64,000 bases of DNA from Candidatus Latescibacterota bacterium (GTDB lineage Bacteria > Latescibacterota > UBA2968 > GCA-2709665): positions 192,001 to 256,000 of the forward strand of contig CAXXXF010000015.1 of assembly GCA_963667175.2 (NCBI GenBank). Direction: 5' to 3'. Shown in pieces: positions 19,459 through 37,803 of the stretch (position 1 is its first letter; the number at the start of each line of letters is the position of its first letter). The position numbers and the translations under genes were made by a program. A model generated the notes under the pieces. The model made no database searches and was not told where the DNA came from. It saw only the letters and a program-made list of their open reading frames with translations.

Positions 19459-19510
19459 ATGGGCAACGTATTTCCGGGTTGGCAAAACAGGCATTTCCTC
19501 CGGCCTTCCG

Positions 19511-19556
19511 GTTCTAATCCTGTTCATTCTGTTCATCCATCTAATCCTGATCGGAT
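19511..19556. repeat. ATCCTGTTC-type 9-mer repeat patch
   Basis: TTCTAATCCTGTTCATTCTGTTCATCCATCTAATCCTGATCGG; shares motifs with 52690-52895. Confidence 0.6.
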
Positions 19557-19561
19557 TTAAC

Positions 19562-19590
19562 TTGACACTCTCGATATGATTGTTTAACGT
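19562..19590 (+). promoter_or_regulatory. Sigma70 promoter of the aromatic amino-acid cluster
   Basis: TTGACA-17-TAACGT upstream of the leader ORF. Confidence 0.65.
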
Positions 19591-19655
19591 TAGACCGTTC
19601 CTGTTGGAAAGGCGGGTTGCCGCAACCCGGCGCGAGACCGGCAGGACGCTGGATC

Positions 19656-19778
19656 ATGCGAGGATCGAACGTGACGGATCGTGGCCGGAACAGGCTTGCC
19701 TGGCGTGGGTATTTTTATCGCTCCTACCGGTGGTACTACCGGGAGGCCGCGGAACGTCATATCTGCCCACGCGAGTAA
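19656..19778 (+). CDS. Trp/Tyr/Phe-rich attenuator leader peptide (below ORF-track cutoff)
   Basis: MRGSNVTDRGRNRLAWRGYFYRSYRWYYREAAERHICPRE*; 2 W, 5 Y and 1 F within 13 codons; AGGA RBS; alternative GTG start at 19671. Confidence 0.8.
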   Translation: MRGSNVTDRGRNRLAWRGYFYRSYRWYYREAAERHICPRE

Positions 19779-19801
19779 ACCGTTGACAAGTCCGGAAATC
19801 T

Positions 19802-19831
19802 GGCCGTGGGCATCTGCTCACGGTTTTTTTT
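19802..19831 (+). terminator. Attenuator terminator upstream of trpE
   Basis: CCGTGGGCA-TC-TGCTCACGG plus T8; 5' arm can alternatively pair with TGCCCACG (19764-19771). Confidence 0.85.
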
Positions 19832-19919
19832 GTCCCGTACGGGATGGGGACATCTGACCGTTCGCTGTCCGGCAAAACACGACGTGGCTATCAGGTTCAC
19901 GAATTCTGATGGCAGGCAG

Positions 19920-21410
19920 GTGAACTTTGTGAGTACGCCCGACCTGGAAACGCTGAAGACGCTGGCTGAAGGCCGGGGACTGGTTCCAATATCCCGAGAG
20001 ATCCTCGGGGATACGGAAACGCCGGTGTCCGCCTATCTCAAGCTGCGGCCCGGGAGTCCCTACAGCTTTCTCTTCGAAAGCGTGGAAGGAGGAGAGAAGA
20101 TCGGGCGCTATTCGTTCCTGGGTGTGGCGCCTTTTCTCGCGTTCAGGTCGTGGAAATCCCGGATCGAGGTGGAGGATCTGAAGCGAGGCGGCATTCGCAG
20201 ATTCGAGGGTTCGCCCATTGCCGAGCTCAGGCTTTTGCTGAAGCAATATCGTTCAGCGCACCTGGAGGGTCTGCCCAGGTTCACCGGCGGGGCCGTGGGA
20301 TACGTGGGCTACGATGCGGTCCGGCTGATTGAAGATATCCCCGACCGAACGGATGACGACCACGGTCTTCCCGACGTTGCGCTGCTGTTCTACGATACGC
20401 TTCTTTGCTTCGACAACGCGCGGCAGAAGATTCATCTGATTTCCAACGTGCACACCTCCGGCGATATCGAGAACAACTTTCGTGAGGCGGAGGCGAGGAT
20501 CGATTCGCTGGAAGGGGCCTTGCGCGCGGCGATTCCCGCGAACGGTGTTTCCCGGGAATCGCCGCGCCGCAAAGCGCGCGAGATCCGGTCCAACACGGAG
20601 AGATCGGTCTTTCTGGACAAGGTGCGGCGCTGCAGGGAGTATATCGTGGCGGGCGATATCTTTCAGGTCGTACTTTCCCAGCGCTTCGAGACGGAGGTAT
20701 CCGCCGGCTCGCTGGACATTTACCGGGCGCTTCGGACGGTAAATCCGTCGCCATACATGTTCCATCTGGATCTGAAAGACGCGCAACTCGTCGGGGCATC
20801 GCCCGAACTGCTGGTGCGTGTCGAAAACGGCGTCGTGCAGGTGCGACCGATCGCGGGTACGCGCTGGAGGGGCGCCACGGAAGAGGAGGACGCCGCCCTG
20901 GAAGCGGACTTGCTGGCCGACGAAAAGGAACGCGCGGAGCACATCATGCTCCTCGATCTCGGCCGGAACGACGTGGGGCGGGTATCCCGATACGACACGG
21001 TACGGGTCACGGAACAGATGGCGATTGAGCGGTATTCTCACGTCATGCATATTGTTTCGAACGTTCAGGGGCATCTCAAAGACGGCGTGGATGCGCTGGA
21101 CGCGCTCTATGCGTGTTACCCGGCGGGCACGGTTTCCGGCGCGCCCAAGATCCGCGCGATGGAGATCATCGACGAACTGGAGCCGACTCGCCGAGGACCT
21201 TACTCGGGGGCAGTGGGCTATATTGACTTTTCCGGCAATATGGATACGTGCATTGCCATACGCACGATGGTGCTGCAGGGACGGAAGGCGTACGTCCAGG
21301 CGGGCGGGGGCATCGTGTTCGATTCCGTACCGGAATACGAGCACCAGGAAACGCTAAACAAGGCGAAGGCGCTGTTCAAGGCGGTCGAGTTGGCGGAAGG
21401 CGCGTTGTAG
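19920..21410 (+). CDS. trpE: Anthranilate synthase component I
   Basis: DTETPVSAYLKL, FLFESVEGGEKIGRYS, GDIFQVVLSQR, NPSPYM, PAGTVSGAPK; GTG start inferred. Confidence 0.96.
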   Translation: MNFVSTPDLETLKTLAEGRGLVPISREILGDTETPVSAYLKLRPGSPYSFLFESVEGGEKIGRYSFLGVAPFLAFRSWKSRIEVEDLKRGGIRRFEGSPIAELRLLLKQYRSAHLEGLPRFTGGAVGYVGYDAVRLIEDIPDRTDDDHGLPDVALLFYDTLLCFDNARQKIHLISNVHTSGDIENNFREAEARIDSLEGALRAAIPANGVSRESPRRKAREIRSNTERSVFLDKVRRCREYIVAGDIFQVVLSQRFETEVSAGSLDIYRALRTVNPSPYMFHLDLKDAQLVGASPELLVRVENGVVQVRPIAGTRWRGATEEEDAALEADLLADEKERAEHIMLLDLGRNDVGRVSRYDTVRVTEQMAIERYSHVMHIVSNVQGHLKDGVDALDALYACYPAGTVSGAPKIRAMEIIDELEPTRRGPYSGAVGYIDFSGNMDTCIAIRTMVLQGRKAYVQAGGGIVFDSVPEYEHQETLNKAKALFKAVELAEGAL

Positions 21411-21459: not shown

Positions 21460-22023
21460 ATGATTCTGGTAATCGACAATTACGACTCGTTCACGTACAA
21501 TCTGGTTCAGTACCTGGGTGAGTTGGGCGCGCGGATGGAAGTATTCCGGAACGACCGGATTGCAATGGACCGGATTGACGCGTCCCAGCCCGAGAAGGTG
21601 GTGATTTCACCCGGTCCTTGTACGCCGAACGAGGCGGGAATCTCCGTGGACCTGATCCGGCGTTTTAGCGGGCGGATTCCGATGCTGGGGGTCTGTCTCG
21701 GACATCAGTGCATCGGGCAGGCCTTCGGAGGCAAGGTCGTTCGGGCGCCTGCGATTCTTCATGGAAAGGTGTCCGAAATCCATCACGACGGTCGTTCGAT
21801 TTTCAGGGGGTTGTCACAGCCCTTTATTGCGACGCGATACCATTCGCTGATTGTCGAACGGGAGAGCCTTCCGGACTGCCTCGAGGTATCCGCACAGACT
21901 CACGACGGTATCATCATGGGACTGCGGCACAGGGACTACCCTGTTGAAGGCGTGCAGTTTCATCCGGAGTCGATATTAACGGCCGAAGGCAAAGTACTGT
22001 TGAAGAATTTCCTGGATGGATGA
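21460..22023 (+). CDS. trpG: Anthranilate synthase component II (glutamine amidotransferase)
   Basis: [28 protein letters not shown]. Confidence 0.96.
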
Positions 22024-22077
22024 AATCGGGGACAGGGAACCGGGTTCCGGCCCCCGTTTGCAAGTTGGGAGACGGCT

Positions 22078-23091
22078 ATGTCGATACAGGATGCGATTTC
22101 GAGACTGATTGAGGGGCAGGATCTGACCCGTGACCGGACGATCGGTTCGATGAACCAGATCATGTCCGGTGAGGCGACAGACGCGCAGATCGGCGCCTAT
22201 CTGGTGGCCCTGCGAGTGAAGGGCGAGACCGTCGAAGAGATCGCGGGCGCCGCGGAGGTGATGAGGGAAAAGGCGACGCGCGTCGTCACGCGGCACGCGA
22301 CGGTGGTGGATACGTGCGGTACCGGGGGTGACGGGGCGGGAACGTTCAATATATCGACGGCGGCGGCTTTTGTGGCGGCCGGCGCCGGGCTGTGTGTTGC
22401 CAAACATGGAAACCGCGCCGCGAGCAGCCTGTGCGGCAGTGCCGACGTCCTGAATGAACTGGGGGTGAATATCGAAGCGTCGCCGAAGACGATGGGTCGG
22501 TGTCTGGATGAGGTTGGCATCGGATTCCTGTTTGCGCCCGCTCTGCACGGCGCCATGAAGTTCGCAATCGGTCCCAGACGCGAGGTCGGCGTGCGTACGA
22601 TTTTCAACGCTCTGGGGCCGCTGACGAATCCCGCGGGCGCAACCCGGCACCTGATCGGCGTCTACAGTCGACCGCTGACCGGCAGGCTTGCCGAGGTGTT
22701 ACGCACGTTGAAATCGGAACGCGCGTTTGTTGTGCACGGGTTGGACGGGCTGGATGAAATCACCACGACCGGACCGACGCAGGTGAGCGAGCTGAACGAT
22801 GGCGCCGTGACATCGTACGAGATCCGACCTGAGGATCTTGGCATCCAAAGGTCGACGCCCGGTGATCTGGCGGGGGGCAACGCCGAAACCAATGCGTCGA
22901 TCCTGCGCAGGGTGCTCAATGGTGAGCCCGGTCCGCGGCGGGACGTCGTCGTTTTGAACGCGGCAGCCGCCATCGTAGCCGGTGGCGCCGCGGTCGATCT
23001 GCAGGCGGGTATTGAACTTGCCGGCGAGACGGTGGATTCGGGGCGGGCAATGGATAAGCTGGAAGAACTGAAACGGGTTTCGGCCGGATGA
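22078..23091 (+). CDS. trpD: Anthranilate phosphoribosyltransferase
   Basis: DTCGTGGDG, NISTA, AKHGNR, GLDE. Confidence 0.97.
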   Translation: MSIQDAISRLIEGQDLTRDRTIGSMNQIMSGEATDAQIGAYLVALRVKGETVEEIAGAAEVMREKATRVVTRHATVVDTCGTGGDGAGTFNISTAAAFVAAGAGLCVAKHGNRAASSLCGSADVLNELGVNIEASPKTMGRCLDEVGIGFLFAPALHGAMKFAIGPRREVGVRTIFNALGPLTNPAGATRHLIGVYSRPLTGRLAEVLRTLKSERAFVVHGLDGLDEITTTGPTQVSELNDGAVTSYEIRPEDLGIQRSTPGDLAGGNAETNASILRRVLNGEPGPRRDVVVLNAAAAIVAGGAAVDLQAGIELAGETVDSGRAMDKLEELKRVSAG

Positions 23092-23184
23092 AGCCGGCGC
23101 CGAACCTTTACGATATCCTCGCCCTCGATTTACGCCAGGGACGGGACTGGCGCCTGTTGGCGCGCGGAAACGAAGAAGGGGAAC

Positions 23185-23976
23185 ATGGCTACGATTCTGG
23201 ATGAGATCATCGCATATAAACGCCGCGTTGTGGCCGAGGCAAAGCGGCAGGTATCCCCTGAGGCGTTGCGGAAGCAGGCAGACCTGGTTCGTCAGCCGGA
23301 CTCGCTGATGGACAGCTTGACTGCCGGGGAGGATATCGCGCTGATTGCGGAGATAAAAAAGGCATCTCCGTCCAAAGGGATAATCAGGGAGAGTTTCGAT
23401 CCTGTTGAAATCGGCCGGTCTTACGAGAAAAACGGCGCGGCGGCCATTTCCGTGCTGACGGATGTAAAGTATTTCCGGGGCTCCGATGCCAGTCTGAAGG
23501 CCGTGAGCGAGGCCGTGGAATTGCCGGTGCTCCGGAAGGATTTCGTGGTTGATCCGTATCAGATCCACGAGGCCAGGACAATCGGCGCGTCCGCGGTTTT
23601 GCTCATTGTTTCAGCGCTTTCCCCGCGCAAATTGTCAGAGATGCTCAGCGTTTGCAGGGAGTCGCAACTGGACGCCCTGGTGGAAGTGCACACTCCGGAT
23701 GAAGCGAGGATGGCGCTGGACGCGGGCGCGGATCTCGTGGGGGTGAATAACCGCGACTTGAAGACGTTTGCTACGGATTTGCAGACCACGTTCGATCTGC
23801 TTGAACATCTGCCGGACGATCTTGTCGTTGTAAGCGAGAGCGGCATCAGGAACAGAGACCACGTCGTCCGGTTGAGGGATGGCGGTGTGGACGCGGTACT
23901 GGTCGGGGAACATCTGATGCGCCAACCCGACGTGGGTCGGGAGCTTCGAGCGTTGTTGGGCGTGGAAGGCGGCTGA
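23185..23976 (+). CDS. trpC: Indole-3-glycerol phosphate synthase
   Basis: IAEIKKASPSKG, ISVLTD, LRKDF, GVNNRDL, SESGI. Confidence 0.97.
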   Translation: MATILDEIIAYKRRVVAEAKRQVSPEALRKQADLVRQPDSLMDSLTAGEDIALIAEIKKASPSKGIIRESFDPVEIGRSYEKNGAAAISVLTDVKYFRGSDASLKAVSEAVELPVLRKDFVVDPYQIHEARTIGASAVLLIVSALSPRKLSEMLSVCRESQLDALVEVHTPDEARMALDAGADLVGVNNRDLKTFATDLQTTFDLLEHLPDDLVVVSESGIRNRDHVVRLRDGGVDAVLVGEHLMRQPDVGRELRALLGVEGG

Positions 23977-23984
23977 TTCAACCT

Positions 23985-24617
23985 ATGGTTCGGGTGAAGA
24001 TTTGCGGAATTACGAATCCGGAGGATGCGCTCTTTGCGGTCGCACAGGGTGTGGACGCCCTGGGGTTCATCTTCTACGAGCGCAGCCCGCGTTACGTGCA
24101 TCCGGAACGCGTCGGCAGGATCGTGTCGGCGTTGCCGCCCTTCGTGACGCCCGTAGGGGTTTTCGTGAACACGGCCAGGGAGGACGTCCTGGCGATCGCA
24201 CGGTTGACAGGGCTGCGAGCGGTCCAACTGCACGGCGACGAGACGCCCGCCGAATGTCTTGGATATCCGATTCCGGTCATCCGGGCATTGCGGGTCGGCG
24301 ACGGTTTCGACCCCGCTTCTCTGAGCGACTTTCCGGTAGACACGTTTCTGCTGGATACGGCCAAAAAGGGATGGTACGGCGGCACCGGAGAGTCTTTTGA
24401 CTGGCGGGTCGCATCGGCGGCCGCGGCACACGGACGGATCATTCTCTCGGGGGGAATCAATCCGTCGAACGTGGCAGACGCGGTGCGGACGGTGAATCCG
24501 TACGCGGTGGACTGCGGCAGCGGCGTCGAGGCCGCGCCGGGACGGAAGGACCCCGACAGAATCGCGGAATTCTTCGAAGCGCTTCGCTCGGTAACCCGAG
24601 GAAACCGGAATTCCTGA
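23985..24617 (+). CDS. trpF: Phosphoribosylanthranilate isomerase
   Basis: VKICGIT, VQLHGDE, GGTG..FDW, VDCGSGVE. Confidence 0.96.
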   Translation: MVRVKICGITNPEDALFAVAQGVDALGFIFYERSPRYVHPERVGRIVSALPPFVTPVGVFVNTAREDVLAIARLTGLRAVQLHGDETPAECLGYPIPVIRALRVGDGFDPASLSDFPVDTFLLDTAKKGWYGGTGESFDWRVASAAAAHGRIILSGGINPSNVADAVRTVNPYAVDCGSGVEAAPGRKDPDRIAEFFEALRSVTRGNRNS

Positions 24618-24651
24618 ACCCATCGTTCGAATTGAATCGGAGCCTGAACCC

Positions 24652-25914
24652 GTGGACGTCATGAAGGATCTGGATTTTCGGGGATACGTCTTTCAGGTAA
24701 CGGACCCCGGCGGCCTTGAAACGCGACTCGACCGGGGGCCGATCACGCTATACTCGGGATTCGACCCCACGGCAGAGAGCTTGCACGTCGGCAACCTGAT
24801 TCCCATACTGGGACTGCGGCGGTTTCAATTGGCGGGGCATCATGCAATCGGGCTTATCGGCGGTGGCACGGGTTTGATTGGCGACCCGAGCGGCAGCAAG
24901 GAAGAACGCCCGTTGAACCCGCCCGAGCTGATCGCGGAATATACCCGGAAGCTCACGGAGCAACTGGCCAGATTCCTGGATTTCGAATCGGGAACCAATC
25001 CCGCCCGCGTGGTCAGCAATCTGGGCTGGCTTTCCAAATTGAAGGCGATTGACTTCCTGAGAGACACGGGCAAGCACTTCTCCGTGGGCTATATGCTGGC
25101 GAAAGAGTCCGTGGCATCGCGGCTGGAGTCCGGGATCTCTTTCACCGAGTTCAGTTACATGGTCATTCAGGCCTATGATTTCATGGAGTTGTTTCGGACA
25201 CATGGGTGTGAACTCCAGATCGGCGGAAGCGATCAATGGGGAAATATAACAGCGGGAATCGAGTTGATCCGACGGCGGCTGGGAGGGCAGGCCCACGGCC
25301 TGACGTTTCCGCTGCTGCAGAAAGCCGACGGCGCCAAGTTCGGCAAGACCGCGTCGGGCGCCGTCTGGCTGGACGCGGAAAAGACGTCGCCGTACCAGCT
25401 GTACCAGCACATGATAAATACAGGCGACCGGGACGTGGTGACGTTTCTCAAGCTGTTTACCTTTCTATCCGAGGATGAGATCGGAAATCTGGAACTGGAG
25501 GTGTCACAACACCCTGAGAAGCGGGAAGCGCAGCGCGTGCTGGCCGAGGAGGTCACCACCCTCGTTCACGACAGCGCCGCCGCCGGGCGCGCGCACAGGA
25601 TTTCCGAGGCGTTGTTCTACGGTGATCTGCGCAATCTGAGTGCGAGAGAGATCGAGGAAGGGTTCAGCGACGTGCCGTCTCACGCGCTCAACGGCGTGGC
25701 AGAAGCGGGTCTGGTCAATCTTCTGGTGGATGCGGGCATTTCATCTTCGATGCGCCAGGCCCGCGAAGACGTCAGGTCCGGCGCCGTATATCTCAATGGA
25801 CTGCGTTGCGTCGACGTGGGCCGGACCCTGGACCCTGACGACAGGCTCGCAGGCAGATACCTTATCGTACGACGCGGCAAACGCCGCTACTTTCTGGTAC
25901 GCTGGAACCTTTGA
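24652..25914 (+). CDS. tyrS: Tyrosine--tRNA ligase
   Basis: YSGFDPTAESLHVGN, QIGGSDQWGNI, KFGKT, C-terminal S4-like RRGKR. Confidence 0.97.
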   Translation: MDVMKDLDFRGYVFQVTDPGGLETRLDRGPITLYSGFDPTAESLHVGNLIPILGLRRFQLAGHHAIGLIGGGTGLIGDPSGSKEERPLNPPELIAEYTRKLTEQLARFLDFESGTNPARVVSNLGWLSKLKAIDFLRDTGKHFSVGYMLAKESVASRLESGISFTEFSYMVIQAYDFMELFRTHGCELQIGGSDQWGNITAGIELIRRRLGGQAHGLTFPLLQKADGAKFGKTASGAVWLDAEKTSPYQLYQHMINTGDRDVVTFLKLFTFLSEDEIGNLELEVSQHPEKREAQRVLAEEVTTLVHDSAAAGRAHRISEALFYGDLRNLSAREIEEGFSDVPSHALNGVAEAGLVNLLVDAGISSSMRQAREDVRSGAVYLNGLRCVDVGRTLDPDDRLAGRYLIVRRGKRRYFLVRWNL

Positions 25915-26010
25915 CGGGCGATCGTGCGACCGCTCTTGCGTATGGATGCAATGATCCGGTTTTGAATGTTCGAAGCTCGGCAGGAAAATCAAAAAGAGAG
26001 GATTCATTCG

Positions 26011-26988
26011 ATGAAAGCACCGTGGATAACCTACCGGCCGGAACTGAAAGTACTTGATTGTACGATTCGTGACGGCGGATTGATGAACGACCACCAGTTC
26101 TCCGATGATTTCGTGAAGGCGGTATATGAAACCTGCGTCAACGCGGGTGTCGATTATATGGAAATCGGTTACCGGAACTCCAAGGAGATGTTTCCCAAAG
26201 ACCAGTTCGGGGCTTTCCGACATAGCGACGAAGAAGACATCCGGAAGATTACCGGCGACCACGACCCGGAAACGACCGGCCTGAAGCTCGCCGTCATGGC
26301 GGACGCGGGCAAGAGTGACTGGGCGGAAGACGTCCTGCCGGCCAGCGACAGCGTCGTCAGTATGGTACGGGTCGCCTGTTACGTCGAGCAGATTCCCGAG
26401 ACCGTCGAAATGCTCTGCGACGCCCATGAGAAAGGATATGAAACCAGCTGCAACATAATGGCCGTCTCCACCGTGCAGGAGGTCGAGATCGACCAGGCGC
26501 TGGAAGTGCTTGTACAGACGCCCGTCGGAACGATCTGCGTCGTAGACAGTTTTGGCGCATTGTACCGCGAGCAGGTGGATATGCTGATCCGGAAGTACAT
26601 GGACGCCGTCAGCGGGACGGGGAAAGAAGTGGGCATTCACGCGCACAACAACCAGCAACTTGCATTTGCCAATACCATCGAAGCGCTCATTCTCGGCGCA
26701 AACCGCGTGGATGCCACGGTGGACGGCCTTGGAAGGGGCGCGGGGAACTGCCCCCTGGAACTGCTCCTCGGATTCCTCCGAAATCCCAAGTTCAAGATCC
26801 GTCCCGTCTACAAGCTGCTGGAAGACCATTTTGTCAAACTGCGCGGTGAATTGACGTGGGGCCCTCTCGTTCCGTATAATATCACGGGGCAGCACAATCA
26901 GCATCCCCGCTCGGCAATGGCGCTGCTGGACGGGAAGGACCGCGATCGCTACCTGGCATTCTACGATCAGGTGATGAGGGACATCTGA
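26011..26988 (+). CDS. DRE-TIM (HMGL/DmpG-like) aldolase-domain protein
   Basis: LDCTIRDGG, HAHNN metal motif, GLGRGAGN; no acylating aldehyde dehydrogenase partner nearby. Confidence 0.85.
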   Translation: MKAPWITYRPELKVLDCTIRDGGLMNDHQFSDDFVKAVYETCVNAGVDYMEIGYRNSKEMFPKDQFGAFRHSDEEDIRKITGDHDPETTGLKLAVMADAGKSDWAEDVLPASDSVVSMVRVACYVEQIPETVEMLCDAHEKGYETSCNIMAVSTVQEVEIDQALEVLVQTPVGTICVVDSFGALYREQVDMLIRKYMDAVSGTGKEVGIHAHNNQQLAFANTIEALILGANRVDATVDGLGRGAGNCPLELLLGFLRNPKFKIRPVYKLLEDHFVKLRGELTWGPLVPYNITGQHNQHPRSAMALLDGKDRDRYLAFYDQVMRDI

Positions 26989-27056
26989 TCGGGCGACTCC
27001 CTGCCCCGGCGAGGGGCTGAATCCGCCCGGGGACCACACCTTTACAGGATAGGGAA

Positions 27057-28268
27057 ATGGCGCTACCGAGAGCAGATGGACCATCCCGTACATTGCCGGA
27101 TTCCGGGGGGCATTTCGGTCCCTACGGCGGGCGATACGTGCCGGAGACGTTGATGCCGTTGCTGGAGGACCTGGAGGCAGCCTATCGCGAAGCGAAGGAC
27201 CGTCCGGATTTTCAGGAGGAACTGAACCGGTATCTCAGGGAGTTTGTGGGCAGGCCCACGCCGCTCACCTTCGCGCAACGACTGACATCGGAACTGGGTG
27301 GGGCGAGAATCTATCTGAAGCGAGAGGACCTCGCCCACACCGGCGCGCACAAGATCAACCACGCTATGGGTCAGATTCTGCTTGCCCGGCGGATGGGCAA
27401 GACGCGGATCATCGCGGAAACCGGCGCCGGGCAGCACGGTGTGGCAACGGCAACCGTGGCTGCGATGTTCGGACTGGACTGCGAGGTTTACATGGGCACG
27501 GAAGACATGGAGCGGCAGGCGCTGAACGTGTTTCGGATGCGGCTCCTCGGCGCAAAGGTGACGGGTGTGGATTCGGGCAGCAGGACGCTGAAGGATGCGA
27601 TTAACGAAGCCATTCGCGATTGGGTGACGAACGTGGACGATACGTTCTACATTTTCGGATCCGTCCTGGGACCTCACCCGTATCCGATGATCGTACGCGA
27701 TTTTCAGCGCGTCATCGGAGTGGAGACTCGAAAGCAGATCCTGCGGGCCGAGGGCCGGCTGCCGGAATGTCTTATCGCGTGCGTCGGCGGCGGCAGCAAT
27801 TCCATCGGTCTGTTTCACGCATTTCTCGAGGACGCGGACGTCCGGATGATCGGTGTCGAAGCGGGCGGGCATGGAATCGCCTCGGGCGATCACGCGGCGC
27901 GATTTCAGGGTGGGGATCTGGGCGTGCTGCACGGCGCCAGGATATATCTCCTGCAGGACGAGGACGGGCAGATCGCGCTGACCCATTCCGTTTCCGCCGG
28001 CCTGGATTATTCCGGAGTCGGCCCTGAACACTGCCATCTGCGCGACGCGGGACGGATCGAATATGCCTATGCAACCGATGACGAGACACTGAAGGCCTTC
28101 CAACTGCTGAGCCGCACCGAGGGGATCATCCCCGCACTCGAAAGCGCGCATGCGATCGCGTACGTGTCAAAAGCCGCACCTGAGATGGACAGGGATGCCG
28201 TCATTGTGGCGAATCTCTCAGGCAGGGGAGACAAAGACGTGCAGCAGGCGGCGAAGTTCCTGGACTAG
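27057..28268 (+). CDS. trpB: Tryptophan synthase beta subunit
   Basis: [42 protein letters not shown]. Confidence 0.98.
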
Positions 28269-28308
28269 TCCTGTCCCAGGGATGCGTTCGACACAAGGGA
28301 TTGTTCGG

Positions 28309-29121
28309 ATGACAAGAATCGGAAAGCGGTTCGCACTGTTGAAGAAAACGAGAAGGACCGGATTCGTCGCATATATCACTGCCGGAGATCCGGACCTGGA
28401 AACCACCCGCAAACTGGCGCCGGAGCTCGAACGGCGCGGGGTGGACGTTCTCGAACTGGGGGTGCCGTTCTCCGACCCGCTGGCGGACGGACCGGAGATC
28501 CAGCGGGCGTCACAGCGGGCCCTTCGGCATCGGGTGTCGATCGGCGACGTACTGGATCTGGTATCGGACCTGCGGCGCGAGACGGAATTGCCCATCGTGC
28601 TCTTTACGTATTTCAATCCTATGCATCGCTTCGGTCTTGAACGGCTTGTCGACAGGGCGGCCGAAGCGGGGGTGGACGGCTTTCTGGCATTGGATCTTCC
28701 GCCTGAGGAGGCGGCCGAGTACAGGAGTCTGATGGGGGAACGGGGATTGGACACGGTTTTCCTGATCGCGCCGACGAGCCGCGAGGATCGCATCCGGCGG
28801 ATCGCGTCATACACCAGCGGCTTTGTGTATTACGTGTCGCGTACGGGCGTTACGGGGGAGCGGGACAGCCTGGAGGAGACTCTCGGCGCCAGGGTGGCGA
28901 CCATCAGACGACATACCTCTCTACCGGTTGCGGTGGGATTCGGTATTTCAACCCCGGAACAGTCCAGGGAGATTGCGGGATACGCGGATGCCGTCGTTGT
29001 CGGCAGCGCAATCGTCCGGCGAATCGCCGAGCGGCAGACGGACCCGGATCTCGTTTTACACGTCGGGGCATTCGTGGAGGAACTGGCGCAACCCCTGAAG
29101 GGAACATCCGATGGATCTTGA
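28309..29121 (+). CDS. trpA: Tryptophan synthase alpha subunit
   Basis: YITAGDP, ELGVPFSDPLADGP.IQ, VSRTGVTG, VGFGIS. Confidence 0.97.
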   Translation: MTRIGKRFALLKKTRRTGFVAYITAGDPDLETTRKLAPELERRGVDVLELGVPFSDPLADGPEIQRASQRALRHRVSIGDVLDLVSDLRRETELPIVLFTYFNPMHRFGLERLVDRAAEAGVDGFLALDLPPEEAAEYRSLMGERGLDTVFLIAPTSREDRIRRIASYTSGFVYYVSRTGVTGERDSLEETLGARVATIRRHTSLPVAVGFGISTPEQSREIAGYADAVVVGSAIVRRIAERQTDPDLVLHVGAFVEELAQPLKGTSDGS

Positions 29122-29404
29122 AGACTGGCGGAAGGAAATCGACGCCCTGGATCAACAGCTTCTGGCGCTTCTGAAACGACGAGCCGAATGTGCGCTTCAA
29201 ATTGGCATGATCAAACAGACGATCGAACAGCCGATTTACGCGCCGGAACGCGAGACGTCGATCCTGAACCGAATTCGCGAACTGAACGCCGGACCCCTGA
29301 CCGACGAAGCGGTGCAACGAATATTTCAGCAGATTATCGATGAATCCAGGCGGCTCGAACAGGAGCACGGCGAACGGCAGTCGGGAGACGTGAAACACCC
29401 CTGA
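29111..29404 (+). CDS. Chorismate mutase (type II, monofunctional)
   Basis: LEDWRKEIDALD...LKRRAE..IG.IK...PERE...IIDESR. Confidence 0.9.
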   Translation: MDLEDWRKEIDALDQQLLALLKRRAECALQIGMIKQTIEQPIYAPERETSILNRIRELNAGPLTDEAVQRIFQQIIDESRRLEQEHGERQSGDVKHP

Positions 29405-29427
29405 TTCATAAGCGGAGCATCCAGCGG

Positions 29428-30456
29428 ATGGCTTTTACGAAAAACATGAAGATTCCCACACCGGAAGCCGTGCTGGAAGAAATGCCGCTTCCGAAGAGAC
29501 TGAAGGACGTAAAGGAGCAGCGGGATGCGCAGATCAGGGACATCTTCGCACGCACGAGCCGTAAATTTCTACTGGTGATCGGCCCCTGTTCAGCGCACGA
29601 TGAAGATGCCGTATGCGAATACGTCTCCAGGCTGGCGAAACTGCAGGAGGCAGTCCGTGAAACGCTGGTTCTGGTGCCTCGAATCTATACCAACAAACCC
29701 CGCACGACCGGCGAAGGGTACAAGGGCATGGGGCATCAGCCGGACCCCCGAAAGGCGCCGGACCTGTCCGAAGGCATTTACGCGGTTCGTCAGATGCACA
29801 TCCGCGCGGTCAGGGAGTCCCACCTGACGGCGGCCGACGAAATGCTGTATCCGGGCAATCTGCCGTACGTCGAAGATCTGCTGAGTTATATCGCCGTGGG
29901 CGCCCGGTCGGTGGAAAACCAACAGCACCGACTAACCTGCAGCGGCGTCGACGTCCCCGTTGGAATGAAGAACCCGACGGCGGGCGACCTGTCTGTGACG
30001 TTGAATGCGATTCACGCCTCGCAGATCCCACACGTCTTCATCTATAACGGATGGGAAGTCAGCACCAGCGGCAATTCCCTGACACACGCCGTGCTTCGCG
30101 GCGCCGTGGACGTGAACGGGCGAAGTATGCCGAACTATCATTTCGAAGACCTCATGTACGCGGCGGCACTCTACGGGCAAAGGCAGCTTGCCAACGCCAC
30201 AATCGTCGTGGATACGAATCACGACAATTCCGGCAAGCAGTTCAGCGAACAACCCAGGATCGGATTGGACGTGGTCCGCAGCCGGCGGAGTTCAACGATA
30301 TTACACGGCATGATCCGCGGGTTGATGGTTGAGAGCTATCTGGAAGAAGGCGCCCAGAACGTCAATGAAGGCGTGTTCGGCAAGTCCATTACCGATCCGT
30401 GCCTGGGTTGGGAAGATACCGAGGCGTTCGTAAAGGAACTGGCGGAGGGGATATGA
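29428..30456 (+). CDS. DAHP synthase (class I-alpha)
   Basis: IGPCSAH, KPRTTG, GARS, GMKN, DTNHDNS, SITDPCLGWE. Confidence 0.95.
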   Translation: MAFTKNMKIPTPEAVLEEMPLPKRLKDVKEQRDAQIRDIFARTSRKFLLVIGPCSAHDEDAVCEYVSRLAKLQEAVRETLVLVPRIYTNKPRTTGEGYKGMGHQPDPRKAPDLSEGIYAVRQMHIRAVRESHLTAADEMLYPGNLPYVEDLLSYIAVGARSVENQQHRLTCSGVDVPVGMKNPTAGDLSVTLNAIHASQIPHVFIYNGWEVSTSGNSLTHAVLRGAVDVNGRSMPNYHFEDLMYAAALYGQRQLANATIVVDTNHDNSGKQFSEQPRIGLDVVRSRRSSTILHGMIRGLMVESYLEEGAQNVNEGVFGKSITDPCLGWEDTEAFVKELAEGI

Positions 30457-30534
30457 TAACGAACGGAATCGGAAAACAGGAACGGAGCCGGACGTTCCGC
30501 AGGCGCTCTGGCCTCCGTTTCCGAGGATGACTGC

Positions 30535-31647
30535 ATGGCCATCGATCCTCCGTTTGCGCGTGAGACCATTGCGATTGTGGGTGTCGGGCTGATTGGCGGT
30601 TCTCTTGGCGTGGGGTTCAAGAGTCTGGGCATCGGGCGACGCGTCATTGGCATCGGCAGGCAGGAGACGCTGGAGGCGGCAGGCAATCTGAACGTAATCG
30701 ACGCGGGCTATCGTTACGAGGAACTCGCATCCGGGATTCGCGAAGCCGCGCTCGTTTTCCTGTGCACCCCCATTGTGCGTATTCTTGACCTGCTGCCGGA
30801 GGTGCTGGCGGCGGCGCGCCAGAATGCGGTCGTGACCGACGTGGGCAGCACCAAGCACGCGATTGTTTCCGCCGCGGCGGCCCATCGACGGGGCGGCGTG
30901 CATTTCGTGGGCGGGCACCCGATGGCGGGTTCCGAGCACCGCGGGGTTGGCGCGGCGGATCCGTTCCTGTTTCAGAATGCGATCTACGTACTGACACCCT
31001 CGCCGGGCACGCCCGATTTCGTGGTCGATAAGCTCTCACGCCTCGTCAGGAGGCTCGGGGCGAGACCGATGAGGATGACGCCCCGGGAACACGACCGCGC
31101 GGCGGCGGCGGTAAGTCACCTTCCGCAGATGATGGCCACAACCCTGGTATCCATGATCGGACGGATGACCGAGACCGAAGGCCTGCCGATTCGAATGACG
31201 GCGGGCGGGTTTCGGGATCTGACGCGCATTGCATCCAGCCCGTATGAGATGTGGCGGGACATCTGCCGAACAAACGCGGCCCCGATCCGCGAGATGATCG
31301 ATCTGTATATCGAGTCGCTGGCGGCGATTCGCGGCGCCGTGGACGACGACCGGCTGGAGCAGGCGTTTGCCGTTGCGAACCGGGTACGCGGGCAGATCCC
31401 GAAGGACTCCAAGGGGTTCTTGCATCCGCTGCACGAGATACTCCTGGTGGCGGAAGACAGGCCGGGCGTGATCGCCGACGTCGCCCGGAAGCTGGCTGCG
31501 GAGAAAATCAACATCAACGACATCGAGGTGTTGAACGTCCGTGAGGGAGAAGGAGGCACCATCCGGATGGGTTTCGATTCACGTCCTTGCGCGGAACAGG
31601 CCGTAGACGTGTTGGGGAAGGCGGGATACAGCGTCAGATTGAGGTAA
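30535..31647 (+). CDS. tyrA: Prephenate/arogenate dehydrogenase with C-terminal ACT domain
   Basis: GVGLIGGS, DVGSTK, GGHPMAGSE, HD..SHLP, GFRDLTRIASS, ACT DRPGVIA. Confidence 0.94.
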   Translation: MAIDPPFARETIAIVGVGLIGGSLGVGFKSLGIGRRVIGIGRQETLEAAGNLNVIDAGYRYEELASGIREAALVFLCTPIVRILDLLPEVLAAARQNAVVTDVGSTKHAIVSAAAAHRRGGVHFVGGHPMAGSEHRGVGAADPFLFQNAIYVLTPSPGTPDFVVDKLSRLVRRLGARPMRMTPREHDRAAAAVSHLPQMMATTLVSMIGRMTETEGLPIRMTAGGFRDLTRIASSPYEMWRDICRTNAAPIREMIDLYIESLAAIRGAVDDDRLEQAFAVANRVRGQIPKDSKGFLHPLHEILLVAEDRPGVIADVARKLAAEKININDIEVLNVREGEGGTIRMGFDSRPCAEQAVDVLGKAGYSVRLR

Positions 31648-31695
31648 ATGGACGAATCCCGGGACCATGAATAGATTGGCTGCGGTTTTGTGGGA

Positions 31696-31758
31696 TAACG
31701 GTCCGTTGAAAAAGTCGCTCTGCAGGCGAGCCGGATGGACTTTATCGACGGACTGATA
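31696..31758. mobile_element. Internally deleted 63-bp copy of the 4843-5002 MITE (inverted)
   Basis: First 35 nt match revcomp of 4968-5002 with 3 mismatches; last 28 nt match revcomp of 4843-4870 with 5 mismatches. Confidence 0.75.
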
Positions 31759-31840
31759 CCGCGCAGGTCGTCCAATTGCCCGCGACGGATCGTCAATGCA
31801 CGATACGGTGTGGGTTAATCATCAGTGCGAGGAGAGTCTT

Positions 31841-31981
31841 ATGAGACTGGTCTTCAGGTTATTTCTTCTGGCGTTGTTGGTGTTTCTGGGTGGCGTCGTA
31901 TATATCCGGTTCACCTACAACTGCTCCTGGAAGGAGAGTTTCGCCATTGCCGACCAGTTCGTGTCTGACCTGACCGGTTGA
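31841..31981 (+). CDS. Small single-pass membrane protein
   Basis: GAGGAG RBS; MRLVFRLFLLALLVFLGGVVYIRF hydrophobic helix. Confidence 0.6.
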   Translation: MRLVFRLFLLALLVFLGGVVYIRFTYNCSWKESFAIADQFVSDLTG

Positions 31982-32895
31982 GCGACGTGTTGAAATCGGG
32001 ACAGGGCGCCAGGTCGGAGGAGCCTCGCGTGGGTATTGTCTCAACCACGCGGCTGCTGGGAGTGATTGGCGACCCGATTGCCCATTCGCTGTCGCCGGAC
32101 ATGCACAATGCGGCCATCCGCGTTCTTGATATAGACTACTGTTACGTGGCGTTCCACGTTTTGCCGGCCAGGGTTGAATCGGCGCTTCGGGGTATGCGCG
32201 CATTGCAGATCCGGGGATTGAACGTCACCCTTCCCCACAAGACCGCGGTGATGGCGCACCTTGACCGGATTTCGGAAGAAGCGCTGGCCGTAGGCGCGGT
32301 GAATACGATTTCTTTCGAGGAGGGCGACCTCGTCGGCCACAATACCGACGTGTACGGGCTGGCCACGGCGCTGGAGCGGACCGCGGGCCTCGCGGGTTTG
32401 CCGGAGCACTGCGTGATTCTCGGCGCGGGCGGCGTCGCGAGGGCCGCCGTTTACGCGCTGGCAACCAATGACGAAGTGCGCCGCGTGAGCATACTCAATC
32501 GGACCGTTTCCCGGGCGGAATCGCTTGCGCATGACATGGAAAGGATCACGGGAAAGACGATAGACGCAGGCGAACTGACGGCAGACACCCAGTTTAGAGT
32601 CTTCGCGGATGCCGGCCTGGTTGTAAACGGGACGTCGCTGGGGATGGTTCCGGACGTGGAGCGGACGCCGCTGGCCGACACCTCTGCGCTTCACTCTGAG
32701 CTTGTTCTGTACGATACGGTTTTCAACCCGCTGGACACGCTGCTGATGCGGCAGTTCCGGTCCGCGGGCGCGCCGGCGTTTGGAGGACTGGATATGCTCG
32801 TGCACCAGGGAGCGCGTTCGTTTGCCATCTGGACGGGTGTCGAGCCGCCCGTCGACGTGATGAAGCGGGCGATTATCGGACGGTTTCGGGCGTAA
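31978..32895 (+). CDS. aroE: Shikimate dehydrogenase
   Basis: HSLSPDMHN, NVTLPHK, GAVNT, GHNTD, GAGGVA, GLDMLVHQG. Confidence 0.96.
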   Translation: MSDVLKSGQGARSEEPRVGIVSTTRLLGVIGDPIAHSLSPDMHNAAIRVLDIDYCYVAFHVLPARVESALRGMRALQIRGLNVTLPHKTAVMAHLDRISEEALAVGAVNTISFEEGDLVGHNTDVYGLATALERTAGLAGLPEHCVILGAGGVARAAVYALATNDEVRRVSILNRTVSRAESLAHDMERITGKTIDAGELTADTQFRVFADAGLVVNGTSLGMVPDVERTPLADTSALHSELVLYDTVFNPLDTLLMRQFRSAGAPAFGGLDMLVHQGARSFAIWTGVEPPVDVMKRAIIGRFRA

Positions 32896-32897
32896 CG

Positions 32898-33626
32898 GTG
32901 GCGAGTTCCTATCTTCAGGAACGCAATGCCAGGCGGGCCTTTGTGCGCCAGACGTTCGACGGCATTGCGAGCACCTACGATCTGTTGAACCACCTGTTGA
33001 GCGCCGGCGCGGATATCCTCTGGCGGCGATGGACCATCGACGCGCTGGCATTGGAAACGGGCTGGTGGATCCTGGACCTTGCAACCGGTACGGGCGACCT
33101 GGGTCTCGAAGCGGCTGCGCGCGATCCGGGGGCGCGGGTTGTGGGCGCCGACCTTTCCCGGCCGATGCTGCGGCTGGGAAACAAGAAACAGGAGAAGAGA
33201 TCCGGTCGGCTTTTTTTTCTTTGCGGAGACGCGGAGCGGCTGCCGTTTCCCGATGCGCGGTTTCATGCCGTAACCATTGGCTTCGGGGTACGGAACTTTT
33301 CGGACCTGGCGACTGGATTGCGGGAAATACACCGGGTGATGCGTCCCGGGGGCCGGCTGGCAATCCTGGAGTTCTCCCGGCCCAGGGCGTTTCTGTTGCG
33401 CAGGGTCTACTTCTTCTATTTCAGATATATTCTGCCCGGGATCGGCCGGGTTGTTTCCCGGAATCCCCGGGCGTATCGGTATCTTTACGAATCTGTAATG
33501 GGTTTTCCTGAAGGGGACGCATTCCTGAGACGTCTGGCGCGGGCCGGTTTTGTGGAACCTGAGGAACGCCGGTTCTCCTTTGGCATCGCCACACTTTACC
33601 TGGCGCGAAAACCTCAAATGTCCTAG
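32898..33626 (+). CDS. ubiE: UbiE/MenG family quinone C-methyltransferase
   Basis: FDGIASTYDLLN, LDLATGTGD, DAERLPF, GFGVRN, LEFSRP, YLYES. Confidence 0.9.
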   Translation: MASSYLQERNARRAFVRQTFDGIASTYDLLNHLLSAGADILWRRWTIDALALETGWWILDLATGTGDLGLEAAARDPGARVVGADLSRPMLRLGNKKQEKRSGRLFFLCGDAERLPFPDARFHAVTIGFGVRNFSDLATGLREIHRVMRPGGRLAILEFSRPRAFLLRRVYFFYFRYILPGIGRVVSRNPRAYRYLYESVMGFPEGDAFLRRLARAGFVEPEERRFSFGIATLYLARKPQMS

Positions 33627-33663
33627 TCAGGCAGCATAGGGAGCCGGGGGCGGCAGTCACCGG

Positions 33664-33717
33664 AGCGAGGGCATCTTGCCCTCGCTGCGCCTCGCGGGCG
33701 GTTCACGAACCGCCCCT
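33664..33717. repeat. Two adjacent REP-like palindromes
   Basis: AGCGAGGGCA-TCT-TGCCCTCGCT and GGGCGGTTC-AC-GAACCGCCC. Confidence 0.6.
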
Positions 33718-33801
33718 GCACGAACGCGGACGTCCGTAAATTGACGTTGATATCTGTTTTTCCTGCTGCTTCTCGATTGCCGCGAGAAGAGGTCCTCGTT
33801 C

Positions 33802-35505
33802 ATGAACAATCCATTCATTGATGAAATCGTATCGCAGGTCTCAAAAGCGACTGACGCGCGTCCCGATGAGGTGAGGCCGCTGATCGAAGTCCCTCCCAAA
33901 CCCGAGATGGGGGATTACGCGCTGCCGTGTTTCGGGCTTGCGAGAACGCTTCGGAAGGCGCCGAATCAGATCGCGAAGGATCTTGAAGCGCGAGTGCGCA
34001 CGGGCGCGCGTATTGCCCGGGTGAGCGCCGTGGGCCCGTATCTCAATATCTTCCTGAGCCAGGCCGAATTCGTCCGGGAAACGCTTTCGCAGATTCTCGC
34101 CAGTGGCAGGCAGTTCGGACACAGCCGGGCGGGCGCCGGGAAAACGGTCGTGATCGATTTCTCGTCACCGAATATCTCCAAGCCGTTCACGATAGCCCAC
34201 GTCCGTTCGACGGCAATCGGGAATTCGCTCTGCAGGATTTACGGGGCGCTCGGCTGGAACGTGATCGGCATCAATCACCTCGGCGACTGGGGCGCCCCGC
34301 ACGGGATGAATATCGCGGCGTACAAGCGATGGGGAGATGAGAACGCGGTCCGCAGGAATCCTCCCTTCGAGCTGTTCAATCTGTACGTGAAGTTCAATGC
34401 CGAGATGGAAAGGGATCCGTCTCTCGGCGATGACGTCAAGCTCTGGACCAGGAAACTGGAGGCGGGCGACGCCGAGGCGCTGCGGCTGTGGAAATGGTTC
34501 CGGGAAGAGACCATAAGCGACTTCAAACGAATTTACGAATTGTTGGACGTGACATTTACCGAATACACGGGTGAGAGTTTTTTTCATGACAAGGTGGGGC
34601 CGGTTGTCGACGAATTGAAGGAAAAAGGGCTTGCCGTGGAGAGTGAGGGCGCCCTCGTTGTCATGCTGGACGACGACGACAAGCCGCCGGCCATCATCCA
34701 GACGGGACACGACACCAGCGTCTATCTCACGCGGGACCTGGCCGCTGCGATTTACCGCAAGGAAACCTACGACTTCGATAAGTTGATCTACGCGACCGAC
34801 GCCGGACAGTCCCTGCATTTCCGGCAGCTATTCAAGATACTCGAACGGATGGGCTATGAATGGGCGAAAGACTGTGTTCACGTCCCGTTCGGCATTATTT
34901 CCTTTAAAGAGGGAAGGATGTCGAGCCGCAGGGGCAACGTGATTTTCCTGGAGCACGTGCTGAACCGGGCGGTTGAGTTGACGCGGGAAATCATCGAGAA
35001 CAAGAATCCGGATCTTCCCGAAAGGGACGCGATCGCCCGGGACGTGGGCATCGGCGCGGTGGTCTACGCGGACCTGGACTCGCGCCGGACGCGGGACGTG
35101 GTATTCGACTGGGATGAGATTCTGAATTTCAACGGCGAGACCGGCCCATACGTTCAATATACCCATGCCCGCTATTGCAGTGTGCTGCGCAGGTACGGAG
35201 GTCCGGCGCCGCCGGCCGGGGCAGACCTTTCTCTGCTGAGCGAACCCGAGACCGTGGCCGTTGTCAAGTGCCTGGAGCGGTTTCCGCAGCGTATCCGGAA
35301 CGCGGCCGAGGCCTGTGAGCCGTCTCTGATTGCCGGGTTCCTGATCGAACTCTGCGCAGAGGCAAACCGGTTTTACAACGCCCACCGGGTCATTTCGGAA
35401 GACGCGACCCTGACACGGGCGCGTGTCGCCCTCGTTTATTCGATCACCGCCGTGCTGGCCGCCGGACTCCATCTGCTGGGCCTGAAGGCGCCGGAGGAAA
35501 TGTGA
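33802..35505 (+). CDS. argS: Arginine--tRNA ligase
   Basis: GDYALPCF, DFSSPNISKPF, NHLGDWG, YLTRDLAAA, MSSRRG, GETGPYVQYTHAR. Confidence 0.96.
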   Translation: MNNPFIDEIVSQVSKATDARPDEVRPLIEVPPKPEMGDYALPCFGLARTLRKAPNQIAKDLEARVRTGARIARVSAVGPYLNIFLSQAEFVRETLSQILASGRQFGHSRAGAGKTVVIDFSSPNISKPFTIAHVRSTAIGNSLCRIYGALGWNVIGINHLGDWGAPHGMNIAAYKRWGDENAVRRNPPFELFNLYVKFNAEMERDPSLGDDVKLWTRKLEAGDAEALRLWKWFREETISDFKRIYELLDVTFTEYTGESFFHDKVGPVVDELKEKGLAVESEGALVVMLDDDDKPPAIIQTGHDTSVYLTRDLAAAIYRKETYDFDKLIYATDAGQSLHFRQLFKILERMGYEWAKDCVHVPFGIISFKEGRMSSRRGNVIFLEHVLNRAVELTREIIENKNPDLPERDAIARDVGIGAVVYADLDSRRTRDVVFDWDEILNFNGETGPYVQYTHARYCSVLRRYGGPAPPAGADLSLLSEPETVAVVKCLERFPQRIRNAAEACEPSLIAGFLIELCAEANRFYNAHRVISEDATLTRARVALVYSITAVLAAGLHLLGLKAPEEM

Positions 35506-36065
35506 GTCGGACCGCGCATGGTTCTCTGCTGCGGGGCAGACAGATTTTCCTGACCGGTTTCATGGCGACCGGAAAGAGCAAGGTCGGCCCGATTCTGGCG
35601 CGGCGCCTGGATCGGGTATTCGTGGATACGGACGAGTTGATCGTGGAGAAGGCCGGGAAGTCGATCCCGCGGATCTTCGCTGAAGACGGAGAAGGCGCAT
35701 TCCGTCGCATCGAGCGCGAATGCGTGTCACGCGCGGCCGGAATGCCCCATGCCGTCATTGCGCTGGGTGGCGGCGCCGTAACGCAGGAAGGCAACTGGGT
35801 CACGATTCGGGCATCCGGAGTCTGCCTGTGTCTTCGGGCATCGGCGGAGACCATTTTCAAGCGCTTGCGCAGGACCGAGGGAGAACGGCCGCTGATGGCA
35901 GGTGTGACCGATGAAGGCCGGATGGCGAAGATCCGGTCGATGCTGGCGGCCCGGGCGCCGTTTTACGAACGTGCGGACGCGTTCGTGGAGTCGACGGAGT
36001 CTCGCACGCCGGAAGAGACGGTTCAGCTGGCGGTGTCGGCATTGGAAGGCCTGCAATCGCGATAA
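35502..36065 (+). CDS. aroK: Shikimate kinase
   Basis: GFMATGKS, FVDTD, GEGAFR, GGGAV, RPL. Confidence 0.95.
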   Translation: MSRTAHGSLLRGRQIFLTGFMATGKSKVGPILARRLDRVFVDTDELIVEKAGKSIPRIFAEDGEGAFRRIERECVSRAAGMPHAVIALGGGAVTQEGNWVTIRASGVCLCLRASAETIFKRLRRTEGERPLMAGVTDEGRMAKIRSMLAARAPFYERADAFVESTESRTPEETVQLAVSALEGLQSR

Positions 36066-36076
36066 GAGAGCTGCTT

Positions 36077-37746: not shown

Positions 37747-37766
37747 GGCAATTGGACAACCCCGCG

Positions 37767-37803
37767 GAACAGGGGCGAGAAAACCTCGCCCCTGTTCTTT
37801 TTT
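37767..37803 (+). terminator. Strong hairpin with plus-strand T-tract
   Basis: GAACAGGGGCGAG-AAAAC-CTCGCCCCTGTTC followed by T6. Confidence 0.6.

Follow-up and report, generated by a model that had tools for sequence, protein, structure and literature searches.

Most of what is known about leader-peptide attenuation comes from Proteobacteria and Actinobacteria, where a leader usually reads a single amino acid. In the Yanofsky model of Escherichia coli trpL, the leader is located before trpE and carries four segments that can pair in the alternatives 1:2, 2:3 and 3:4. One leader can also read several related amino acids, as in the ilvGMEDA (Ile, Leu and Val) and thr (Thr and Ile) operons of E. 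coli. The leader described here belongs to a poorly studied lineage. It occupies positions 19562-19831 of a 64,000-nt stretch of DNA (the window, to which all positions refer unless another locus is named) from contig CAXXXF010000015.1 of a Candidatus Latescibacterota bacterium, and is flanked on one side by a short-chain dehydrogenase gene (18697-19458) and on the other by trpE (GTG 19929), the first gene of a large cluster devoted mostly to aromatic amino acids. It combines a short open reading frame (ORF) rich in Trp, Tyr and Phe codons with a terminator and alternative helices, and to judge from its conservation among relatives it is very probably a classical attenuator like trpL, in which the translating ribosome controls transcription.

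Other leaders of related function have been described. The trpL, pheL and pheM-pheST leaders are treated in the excerpted part of a review (PMC11802643). The same excerpts, citing Neshat et al. 2014, describe aroR of Corynebacterium glutamicum, a leader with Phe-Tyr-Phe located before aroF that responds to Phe and not to Tyr; as far as these excerpts go, it is the closest precedent in print. In Streptomyces, classical attenuators are found before trpS and leuS, and for Actinobacteria no classical attenuators of Tyr or Phe genes are reported in the corresponding excerpts of PMC1262725. In the full-text literature (subscription papers and supplements being outside its scope), no leader combining Trp, Tyr and Phe codons was found before trpE, and none was found for this lineage.

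A conserved leader ORF with an aromatic core

Three features make up the coding part of the leader:

19671..19778, + strand: leader ORF of 35 codons followed by TAA (MTDRGRNRLAWRGYFYRSYRWYYREAAERHICPRE, then stop), whose Shine-Dalgarno (SD) sequence, start and frame are conserved
19660..19664, + strand: SD sequence GAGGA (GGAGGA in most relatives), 6 nt ahead of GTG 19671
19701..19739, + strand: regulatory core, read from the sequence as 13 codons of which 2 are for Trp, 5 for Tyr and 1 for Phe

An initial annotation of the window had proposed a 40-codon ORF at this place. Such an ORF is present, from ATG 19656 to TAA 19778, and its location stands, but its start codon and its length do not. 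ATG 19656 is not conserved (one relative, G009, shows a 1-nt gap there). The start shared by the relatives is GTG 19671, located 6 nt past an SD sequence of the GGAGGA type, with G002 using an ATG at the next codon. The leader therefore has 35 codons and not 40, and 9 Arg codons where the 40-codon frame has 10. The SD sequence, the start and a frame of 34-35 codons are kept in all 15 genomes of the window genus, that is, the window genome and 14 others. Beyond the genus, homologous leader ORFs of 25-35 codons, 5-13 of them aromatic, were found in 50/50 assessable genomes of the order, and these 50 leaders, from two families and 10 genera, form the order-wide alignment. The leader ORF can thus be treated as a gene that is predicted to be translated.

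The core W-R-G-Y-F-Y-R-S-Y-R-W-Y-Y, with its 8 aromatic codons in 13, was confirmed at 19701-19739. Relative to the composition of 18 cluster proteins, the probability of at least 8 aromatic residues in 35 is 0.002, and the other two reading frames of the leader contain 1 and 4 aromatic residues. The initial annotation had suggested looking for this codon cluster upstream of trpE in related genomes, and the expectation was borne out, codons for Trp, Tyr and Phe all being present in each of the 50 aligned leaders. Their pooled residues comprise 5.3% Trp, 14.6% Tyr, 9.9% Phe and 16.7% Arg, versus 0.6%, 2.5%, 3.6% and 8.6%, respectively, in the cluster proteins, which corresponds to an enrichment of about 9-fold for Trp, 6-fold for Tyr and 2.7-fold for Phe. 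Codon changes within the genus were tabulated for 13 ORFs of identical layout, with the exclusion of G002 and G013, whose start or stop differs. Core codons 12-20 and 22-25 show synonymous changes (CGT/CGC, GGG/GGA, TAT/TAC) or replacement of Tyr by Phe alone, the latter in three core codons and in one genome each. In the flanking codons 3-10 and 26-31, the amino acid varies freely.

This coding pattern bears on the possibility that the leader acts as RNA alone, with the ORF incidental, whether by sensing tRNA like a T-box, by binding a metabolite as a riboswitch or by binding a protein such as TRAP. The leader, at about 240 nt, has the size of a T-box, the genome has one T-box-like leader elsewhere, and the leader contains GGUGGUAC, which we take to resemble the T-box core. 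However, conservation of an SD sequence, a start, a frame and a synonymous pattern over two families would be needless for an RNA-only element, and we consider this explanation hardly credible. The T-box reading of GGUGGUAC was rejected, as a scan of 4227 Rfam families at E<=1 gave no match in the region 19000-20400, including RF00513 (Trp_leader) and RF00230 (T-box), and the single T-box-like match of the genome is located on contig C17. At gathering thresholds, the only Rfam match in the whole window is one tRNA. TRAP attenuation, known from Bacillus, involves an mtrB/TRAP gene and 9-11 (G/U)AG repeats in the leader. TRAP was rejected here: PF02081 has no match in the genome, which is 95% complete, although the B. 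subtilis control was detected, and instead of a triplet array the leader contains only four scattered GAG/TAG triplets, 26-83 nt apart.

Segments, terminator and alternative helices

The RNA part of the leader comprises the following elements:

19703..19711, + strand: segment 1 (GCGUGGGUA), the anti-antiterminator strand, 9 pairs with segment 2
19721..19746, + strand: inner hairpin CUCC-UA-CCGG / CCGG-GAGG, enclosed by 1:2 and seen in folds, with codons 19-23 in or around its loop
19764..19772, + strand: segment 2 (UGCCCACGC), able to pair with either segment 1 or segment 3 and with a conserved core
19804..19812, + strand: segment 3, within the 5' arm of the terminator
19815..19823, + strand: segment 4, followed by T8 at 19824-19831
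19802..19831, + strand: intrinsic terminator, with 5' arm 19802-19811, loop AUCU, 3' arm 19816-19825 and U8 19824-19831

The four segments and the T8 run named in the initial annotation were all located by script at these positions, and the three pairings ascribed to them are indeed possible, with 9 pairs for 1:2, 8 for 2:3 and 8-10 for 3:4 when counted by hand. The folding energies of the sub-regions are -32.9 kcal/mol for 1:2 with the inner hairpin, -20.7 for 2:3 and -15.6 for 3:4. The minimum free energy (MFE) structure of the full-length leader contains 1:2 plus 3:4 (-67.3 kcal/mol), and the best fold before segment 4 is included contains 2:3 (-60.2 kcal/mol).

Each helix was evaluated by the percentage of paired cells across the 50 leaders, in comparison with slid controls, shuffles or both. 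The terminator, which was called independently by a pattern scan with a 10-pair stem, is paired in 99.0% of 500 cells, with 3 compensatory pairs, versus 32-50% in slid controls, and it follows the ORF stop at a distance of 24-29 nt in 22/22 genomes of the family. As for the antiterminator 2:3, five core pairs are kept in 48-50 of the 50 leaders, and 75.4% of its cells are paired overall, versus 39-51% in slid controls. The 2:3 helix extends on its 3' side in the window family and on its 5' side, into the terminator loop, in the sister family, where one flanking pair is compensatory (UA, AU, GU and CG). Hairpins resembling the inner hairpin appear over the Tyr run in the folds of other genera.

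The core of segment 2, UG(C/U)CC, occupies the same alignment column in 50/50 leaders. It is read as Cys-Pro in 41 of them and as MP, LP or VP in 7, and it lies past the stop in 2. Because its letters are kept across reading frames, segment 2 appears to be constrained as nucleotides and the aromatic core as codons; as far as the alignments tell, an attenuator would be expected to show just this division. In 48/50 leaders, the first base of the segment 2 core precedes the start of the stop codon by 5-12 nt (12 nt in the window). The architecture likened to E. coli trpL in the initial annotation, with a leader ORF, a terminator, an overlapping antiterminator and a stop just behind segment 2, is thus supported by 50 leaders from two families.

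The same data speak to a different use of the peptide. An arrest peptide of the TnaC kind would sense a free amino acid and hold the ribosome at or near the stop, not at hungry codons. The conservation of the core as amino acids, in which W-R and Y-Y-R are kept with synonymous Arg codons, would fit such a peptide, as would the presence in most leaders of a Pro codon at most 4 codons from the stop. By contrast, the terminal Cys-Pro is conserved as RNA and not as peptide, since it is MP, LP or VP or lies past the stop in 9/50 leaders; the length and the sequence from core to stop vary freely; and the geometry works without an arrest peptide. This makes an arrest peptide highly improbable.

Within the genus, the 14/14 other genomes match the leader DNA at 80-92% identity, and the match spans exactly 19561-19831. 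In 22/22 genomes of the family, trpE is preceded by a terminator and by a leader ORF that has an SD sequence, a start and 5-13 aromatic codons, a set composed of the window genus and 7 genomes from the other four genera (7/7 with leader ORF and terminator before trpE). The sister-family set comprises 31 genomes, two of their contigs being cut, and a leader ORF with terminator is present in 28/28 genomes with at least 300 nt upstream of trpE. A covariance model built from the 50 aligned leaders and run on the genomes of the class found one full-length copy before trpE in 22/22 genomes of the family and in 30/31 of the sister family, where the sole miss is a contig cut off 143 nt ahead of trpE. 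In the other two families of the class, no credible full-length match was obtained.

Proposed mechanism and points that weigh against it

From the arrangement of these elements, we infer a switch that would operate as follows. Transcription would start at the promoter near 19564-19592, and a ribosome would translate the leader from GTG 19671 to TAA 19778. When charged tRNA-Tyr, tRNA-Phe and tRNA-Trp are ample, the ribosome would reach the TAA that begins at 19776 and cover segment 2; 3:4 would then form, and the hairpin with its U8 (19802-19831) would end the transcript before trpE. When one charged tRNA is scarce, the ribosome would stall with its A site within 19701-19739, covering segment 1 or the inner hairpin, so that segment 2 would be left free, 2:3 would form, and RNA polymerase would read into trpE and the following genes, including the sole tyrS and argS. 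Without translation, 1:2 and 3:4 would form, leading to termination. The three positions assigned to the ribosome are deduced from geometry.

Several results weigh against this scheme or against parts of it. First, the 1:2 helix drawn in the initial annotation holds in the window, in its genus and in genus g5 but fails across the order, where 53.4% of its cells are paired versus 53.2% in shuffles. In other genera, folds pair segment 2 with a stretch near codons 4-7. The support for this alternative upstream partner may be called moderate, with 61.6% of cells paired versus 54.3% in shuffles and 42 cells changed on both sides versus 20.9, but one of the slid controls is not far below it, at 49.6% paired and a covariation score of 0.185 versus 0.252. 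Second, covariation, which the initial annotation had proposed to look for in segments 1-4, is found in the terminator and for 2:3 rests on one pair, because segments 2-4 are nearly invariant; the antiterminator is supported by conservation more than by covariation. Third, the whole leader is not unusually stable (z = -1.03), and 34/200 shuffles fold as well. Fourth, thermodynamic folds with ribosome masking did not separate stalling from non-stalling positions: with the full-length RNA, nearly all stall positions favour the terminator (10 representatives), and with RNA cut before the 3' arm, the 5' arm pairs upstream at nearly every position (17 representatives), so nothing is drawn from these folds. 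Finally, two points concern the amino acids sensed. The first Trp codon is replaced by Leu in 1/13 genus ORFs and by Arg in G002, and the second by Arg, Leu or Tyr in 5/13, Trp being the least constant of the three aromatics in the window genus. Moreover, codon content is no proof of what is sensed, because the Tyr codon of C. glutamicum aroR gave no Tyr response, according to the review excerpts.

In five metatranscriptome runs, only 7-10% of the sampled words were present, and contigs from three of those runs and from one run of unknown kind are 90-95% alike, i.e. they come from relatives. A 203-nt contig of the marine run X1, about 91% alike, spans 19611-19811, and no X1 contig covers 19812-20221. 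This pattern is counted neither as termination nor as transcription, since contigs cannot show RNA ends and the libraries may contain DNA.

Putative promoter and flanking elements

Upstream of the ORF, two features were delineated:

19564..19592, + strand: putative promoter, with -35 TTGACA at 19564-19569, a 17-nt spacer and a weak -10 TAACGT at 19587-19592
19595..19652, + strand: 5' stem-loop of the leader transcript, from the MFE fold, genus-specific

The TTGACA-17-TAACGT promoter had already been read in the initial annotation, and it is found where it was placed. Its layout, TTGAC(A/T)-17-TAA(C/T/A)GT, is conserved in 15/15 genus genomes, and TTGAC followed by A or T occurs at most 140 nt upstream in 45/50 leaders of the order. 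A consensus promoter scan of the window gave no call at 19564-19592, because only 3/6 positions of the -10 hexamer match. The base of the 5' stem-loop (10 pairs) is kept in the 15 genus sequences, with 2 pairs changed on both sides; towards the top, the sequence varies and contains 6-nt indels. In other genera, the 5' untranslated region is shorter and lacks the 19595-19652 stem-loop. One might guess that this structure stabilises the transcript.

Between the leader terminator and trpE, most other genera (G015, G017, G041, G044 and others; L034-L040, L124-L152) carry a second conserved element that is absent from the window genus. Its letters are CTTGACAAAT...CTTATTA...ATAGAAT/ATAAAATTT...ACAGTTA, and by appearance it looks like a second promoter or an operator. 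In some genomes of genus g6 (L137, L139, L142, L147), a tandem short motif resembling CATCTGCG(T/G)CCATCTGCGGAT is inserted between the attenuator and trpE.

The predicted downstream operon

The genes and the terminator that follow the leader are listed below:

19929..21410, + strand: trpE, the first gene, with a GTG start after AGGTGA; Pfam Chorismate_bind and Anth_synt_I_N
21460..37225, + strand: remaining cluster genes, by Pfam trpG, trpD, trpC, trpF, tyrS, an HMGL-like gene, trpB, trpA and then chorismate mutase
within 21460..37225, + strand: cluster genes, continued, by Pfam DAHP synthase, tyrA, aroE, a UbiE-type methyltransferase, argS, aroK and aroB
37766..37798, + strand: next strong terminator, with a 14-pair stem, from a pattern scan; the sole comparably strong one on the + strand in the next 19 kb

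The Pfam matches agree with the mixed aromatic cluster predicted from the sequence, with trp genes, tyrS, tyrA, chorismate mutase and shikimate genes. The chorismate mutase (29111-29404) is of type II, and tyrA encodes a prephenate dehydrogenase with an ACT domain. Because no strong internal terminators are present, the 17 genes may form one transcript, with the terminator at 37766-37798 as the likely end of the operon. Both tyrS and argS are single-copy in the genome and located within the cluster. Among the related genomes examined, gene order is kept in 10/10, and argS is in the operon in 16/16, including 6 operons of family f4. The prephenate dehydratase gene is located on another contig; upstream of this Phe-branch gene (pheA) there is no evident leader ORF, and a deacetylase-like gene lies about 70-100 nt ahead.

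Some variation in gene content can be noted. Relatives carry an EPSP synthase gene (aroA, PF00275) between tyrA and aroE (12294-13601 in L163), where the window has only about 330 nt (31648-31977); elsewhere in the genome, contigs C3 and C12 carry two PF00275 genes, one of them presumably murA. The HMGL-like gene (25966-26988), located in the gap between tyrS and trpB, encodes a protein 88-90% identical to that of two sister-family genomes, versus 57-84% for the flanking genes, and is missing at this place in 7/10 relatives examined, which suggests a recent transfer or an unusually strong constraint. When taken as its longest ORF, trpA shares 119 nt with the end of trpB (28150-28268); the real start of trpA is probably further downstream, because the Pfam match begins at residue 61.

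Which amino acids are sensed

The leader may sense Trp, Tyr and Phe together, an assignment that its codons suggest and that is unproven. Tyr is the most enriched (14.6% versus a background of 2.5%) and the most constant residue of the leaders, with 2-6 per leader in all 10 genera. The chief alternative is that the attenuator in practice senses one amino acid, either Trp as in trpL or Phe as in aroR, and that the other aromatic codons arose merely through RNA pairing or the history of the sequence. In its favour, none of the 50 leaders lacks a Trp codon, the leaders of family f4 are dominated by Trp, several aromatic codons lie within paired segments (segment 1 and the inner hairpin), and a Tyr codon without a Tyr response has its precedent in aroR (excerpts of PMC11802643). 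The abundance and constancy of Tyr speak against this alternative: in the 13 genus ORFs, Tyr codons vary synonymously or to Phe and never to another residue, and the codons that have been lost in the genus are those for Trp. In addition, the operon includes tyrA, chorismate mutase and the only tyrS. Sensing of a single amino acid is thus somewhat unlikely.

Arg is a further candidate. The initial annotation had seen a hint of it in the Arg codons and the embedded argS, and this hint is strengthened by the high Arg content of the leaders, which is about 17% against less than 9% in the cluster proteins, by the conserved positions of these codons and by argS being in the operon; sensing itself is unproven. 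The codon after the last aromatic run encodes Arg in 42/50 leaders, with CGG and CGC used synonymously by lineage, and the codon after a Trp codon encodes Arg in 44/84 cases. Arg sensing by the leader is therefore best described as possible. A broader proposal would have one leader read the Tyr, Phe, Trp and Arg tRNA pools and serve as the only transcriptional sensor for the single tyrS and argS. Judged from codons and gene content, this is unlikely, but if true, the leader peptide would do here what T-boxes do in Firmicutes.

Family f4 offers a comparison for the codon content of the three-aromatic leader. Its 8 trpE leaders (L194-L201) are Trp-dominated, for example RYWWRF, RRWWWRF and HRWWRIW, and the seven that were counted have 2-4 Trp, 0-2 Tyr and 0-3 Phe. 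The f4 operons examined, 6 in number, lack tyrS, trpF, trpB, trpA and DAHP synthase at the locus and retain tyrA, aroE, argS, aroK and aroB. Compared with the two families, a Tyr/Phe-rich leader therefore accompanies an operon with tyrS and DAHP synthase, a correlation drawn from two clades only and carrying no statistic. Both segment 2 (GCGUCCAC) and the terminator (CCGCGGACGC...GCGUCCGCGG, then a run of U) are particular to the f4 leaders, which follow the same design in different letters, and the Arg codon after WW is written CGA, CGC, CGT and CGG. From the Trp-dominated leaders of f4 to the Tyr/Phe-rich leaders of the two families, whose operons gained tyrS and DAHP synthase, these elements would provide a natural series for how codon content sets the specificity of an attenuator.

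Comparison with known systems

A whole order appears to share one homologous Trp/Tyr/Phe leader heading a conserved aromatic operon of about 17 genes that includes the only tyrS and argS. The mechanism is textbook; what is new is its three-amino-acid form in this lineage, a well-supported sequence family that heads an unusual operon. A small ORF and an RNA of this kind escape gene callers and Rfam, and finding them improves annotation.

The leader shares with E. coli trpL an ORF before trpE, four segments and a terminator, and in both the regulatory codons overlap or adjoin segment 1 and an Arg codon directly follows Trp. Unlike trpL, it has no RF00513 match, comprises 35 codons with 5 Tyr, 1 Phe and 2 Trp (trpL has two Trp), and its stop lies after segment 2. 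The operon also differs from the E. coli trp operon, since its 17 genes include common-pathway and Tyr-branch genes and two tRNA synthetases. With the ilvGMEDA and thr leaders it would share the reading of several amino acids, although the pathways differ. The T-box (RF00230) of Firmicute tyrS and trp genes performs the same task, raising tyrS and trp when tRNA is uncharged, but by a different mechanism, and its model has no match here.

Among the systems known from the excerpts cited above, C. glutamicum aroR likewise has a leader peptide of mixed aromatic codons, which controls DAHP synthase by ribosome stalling (PMC11802643). Whereas aroR has no Trp codon and heads a small aroF operon, the present leader contains all three aromatics and precedes trp genes, tyrA and tyrS. 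Finally, as in E. coli pheM-pheST and Streptomyces trpS and leuS (PMC11802643, PMC1262725), a synthetase gene stands behind a leader rich in its own codons; in the present leader, 5 Tyr codons would correspond to tyrS, and the 9 Arg codons possibly to argS. In those systems the leader belongs to the synthetase genes, whereas tyrS and argS lie inside a biosynthetic operon and have one leader in common with it.

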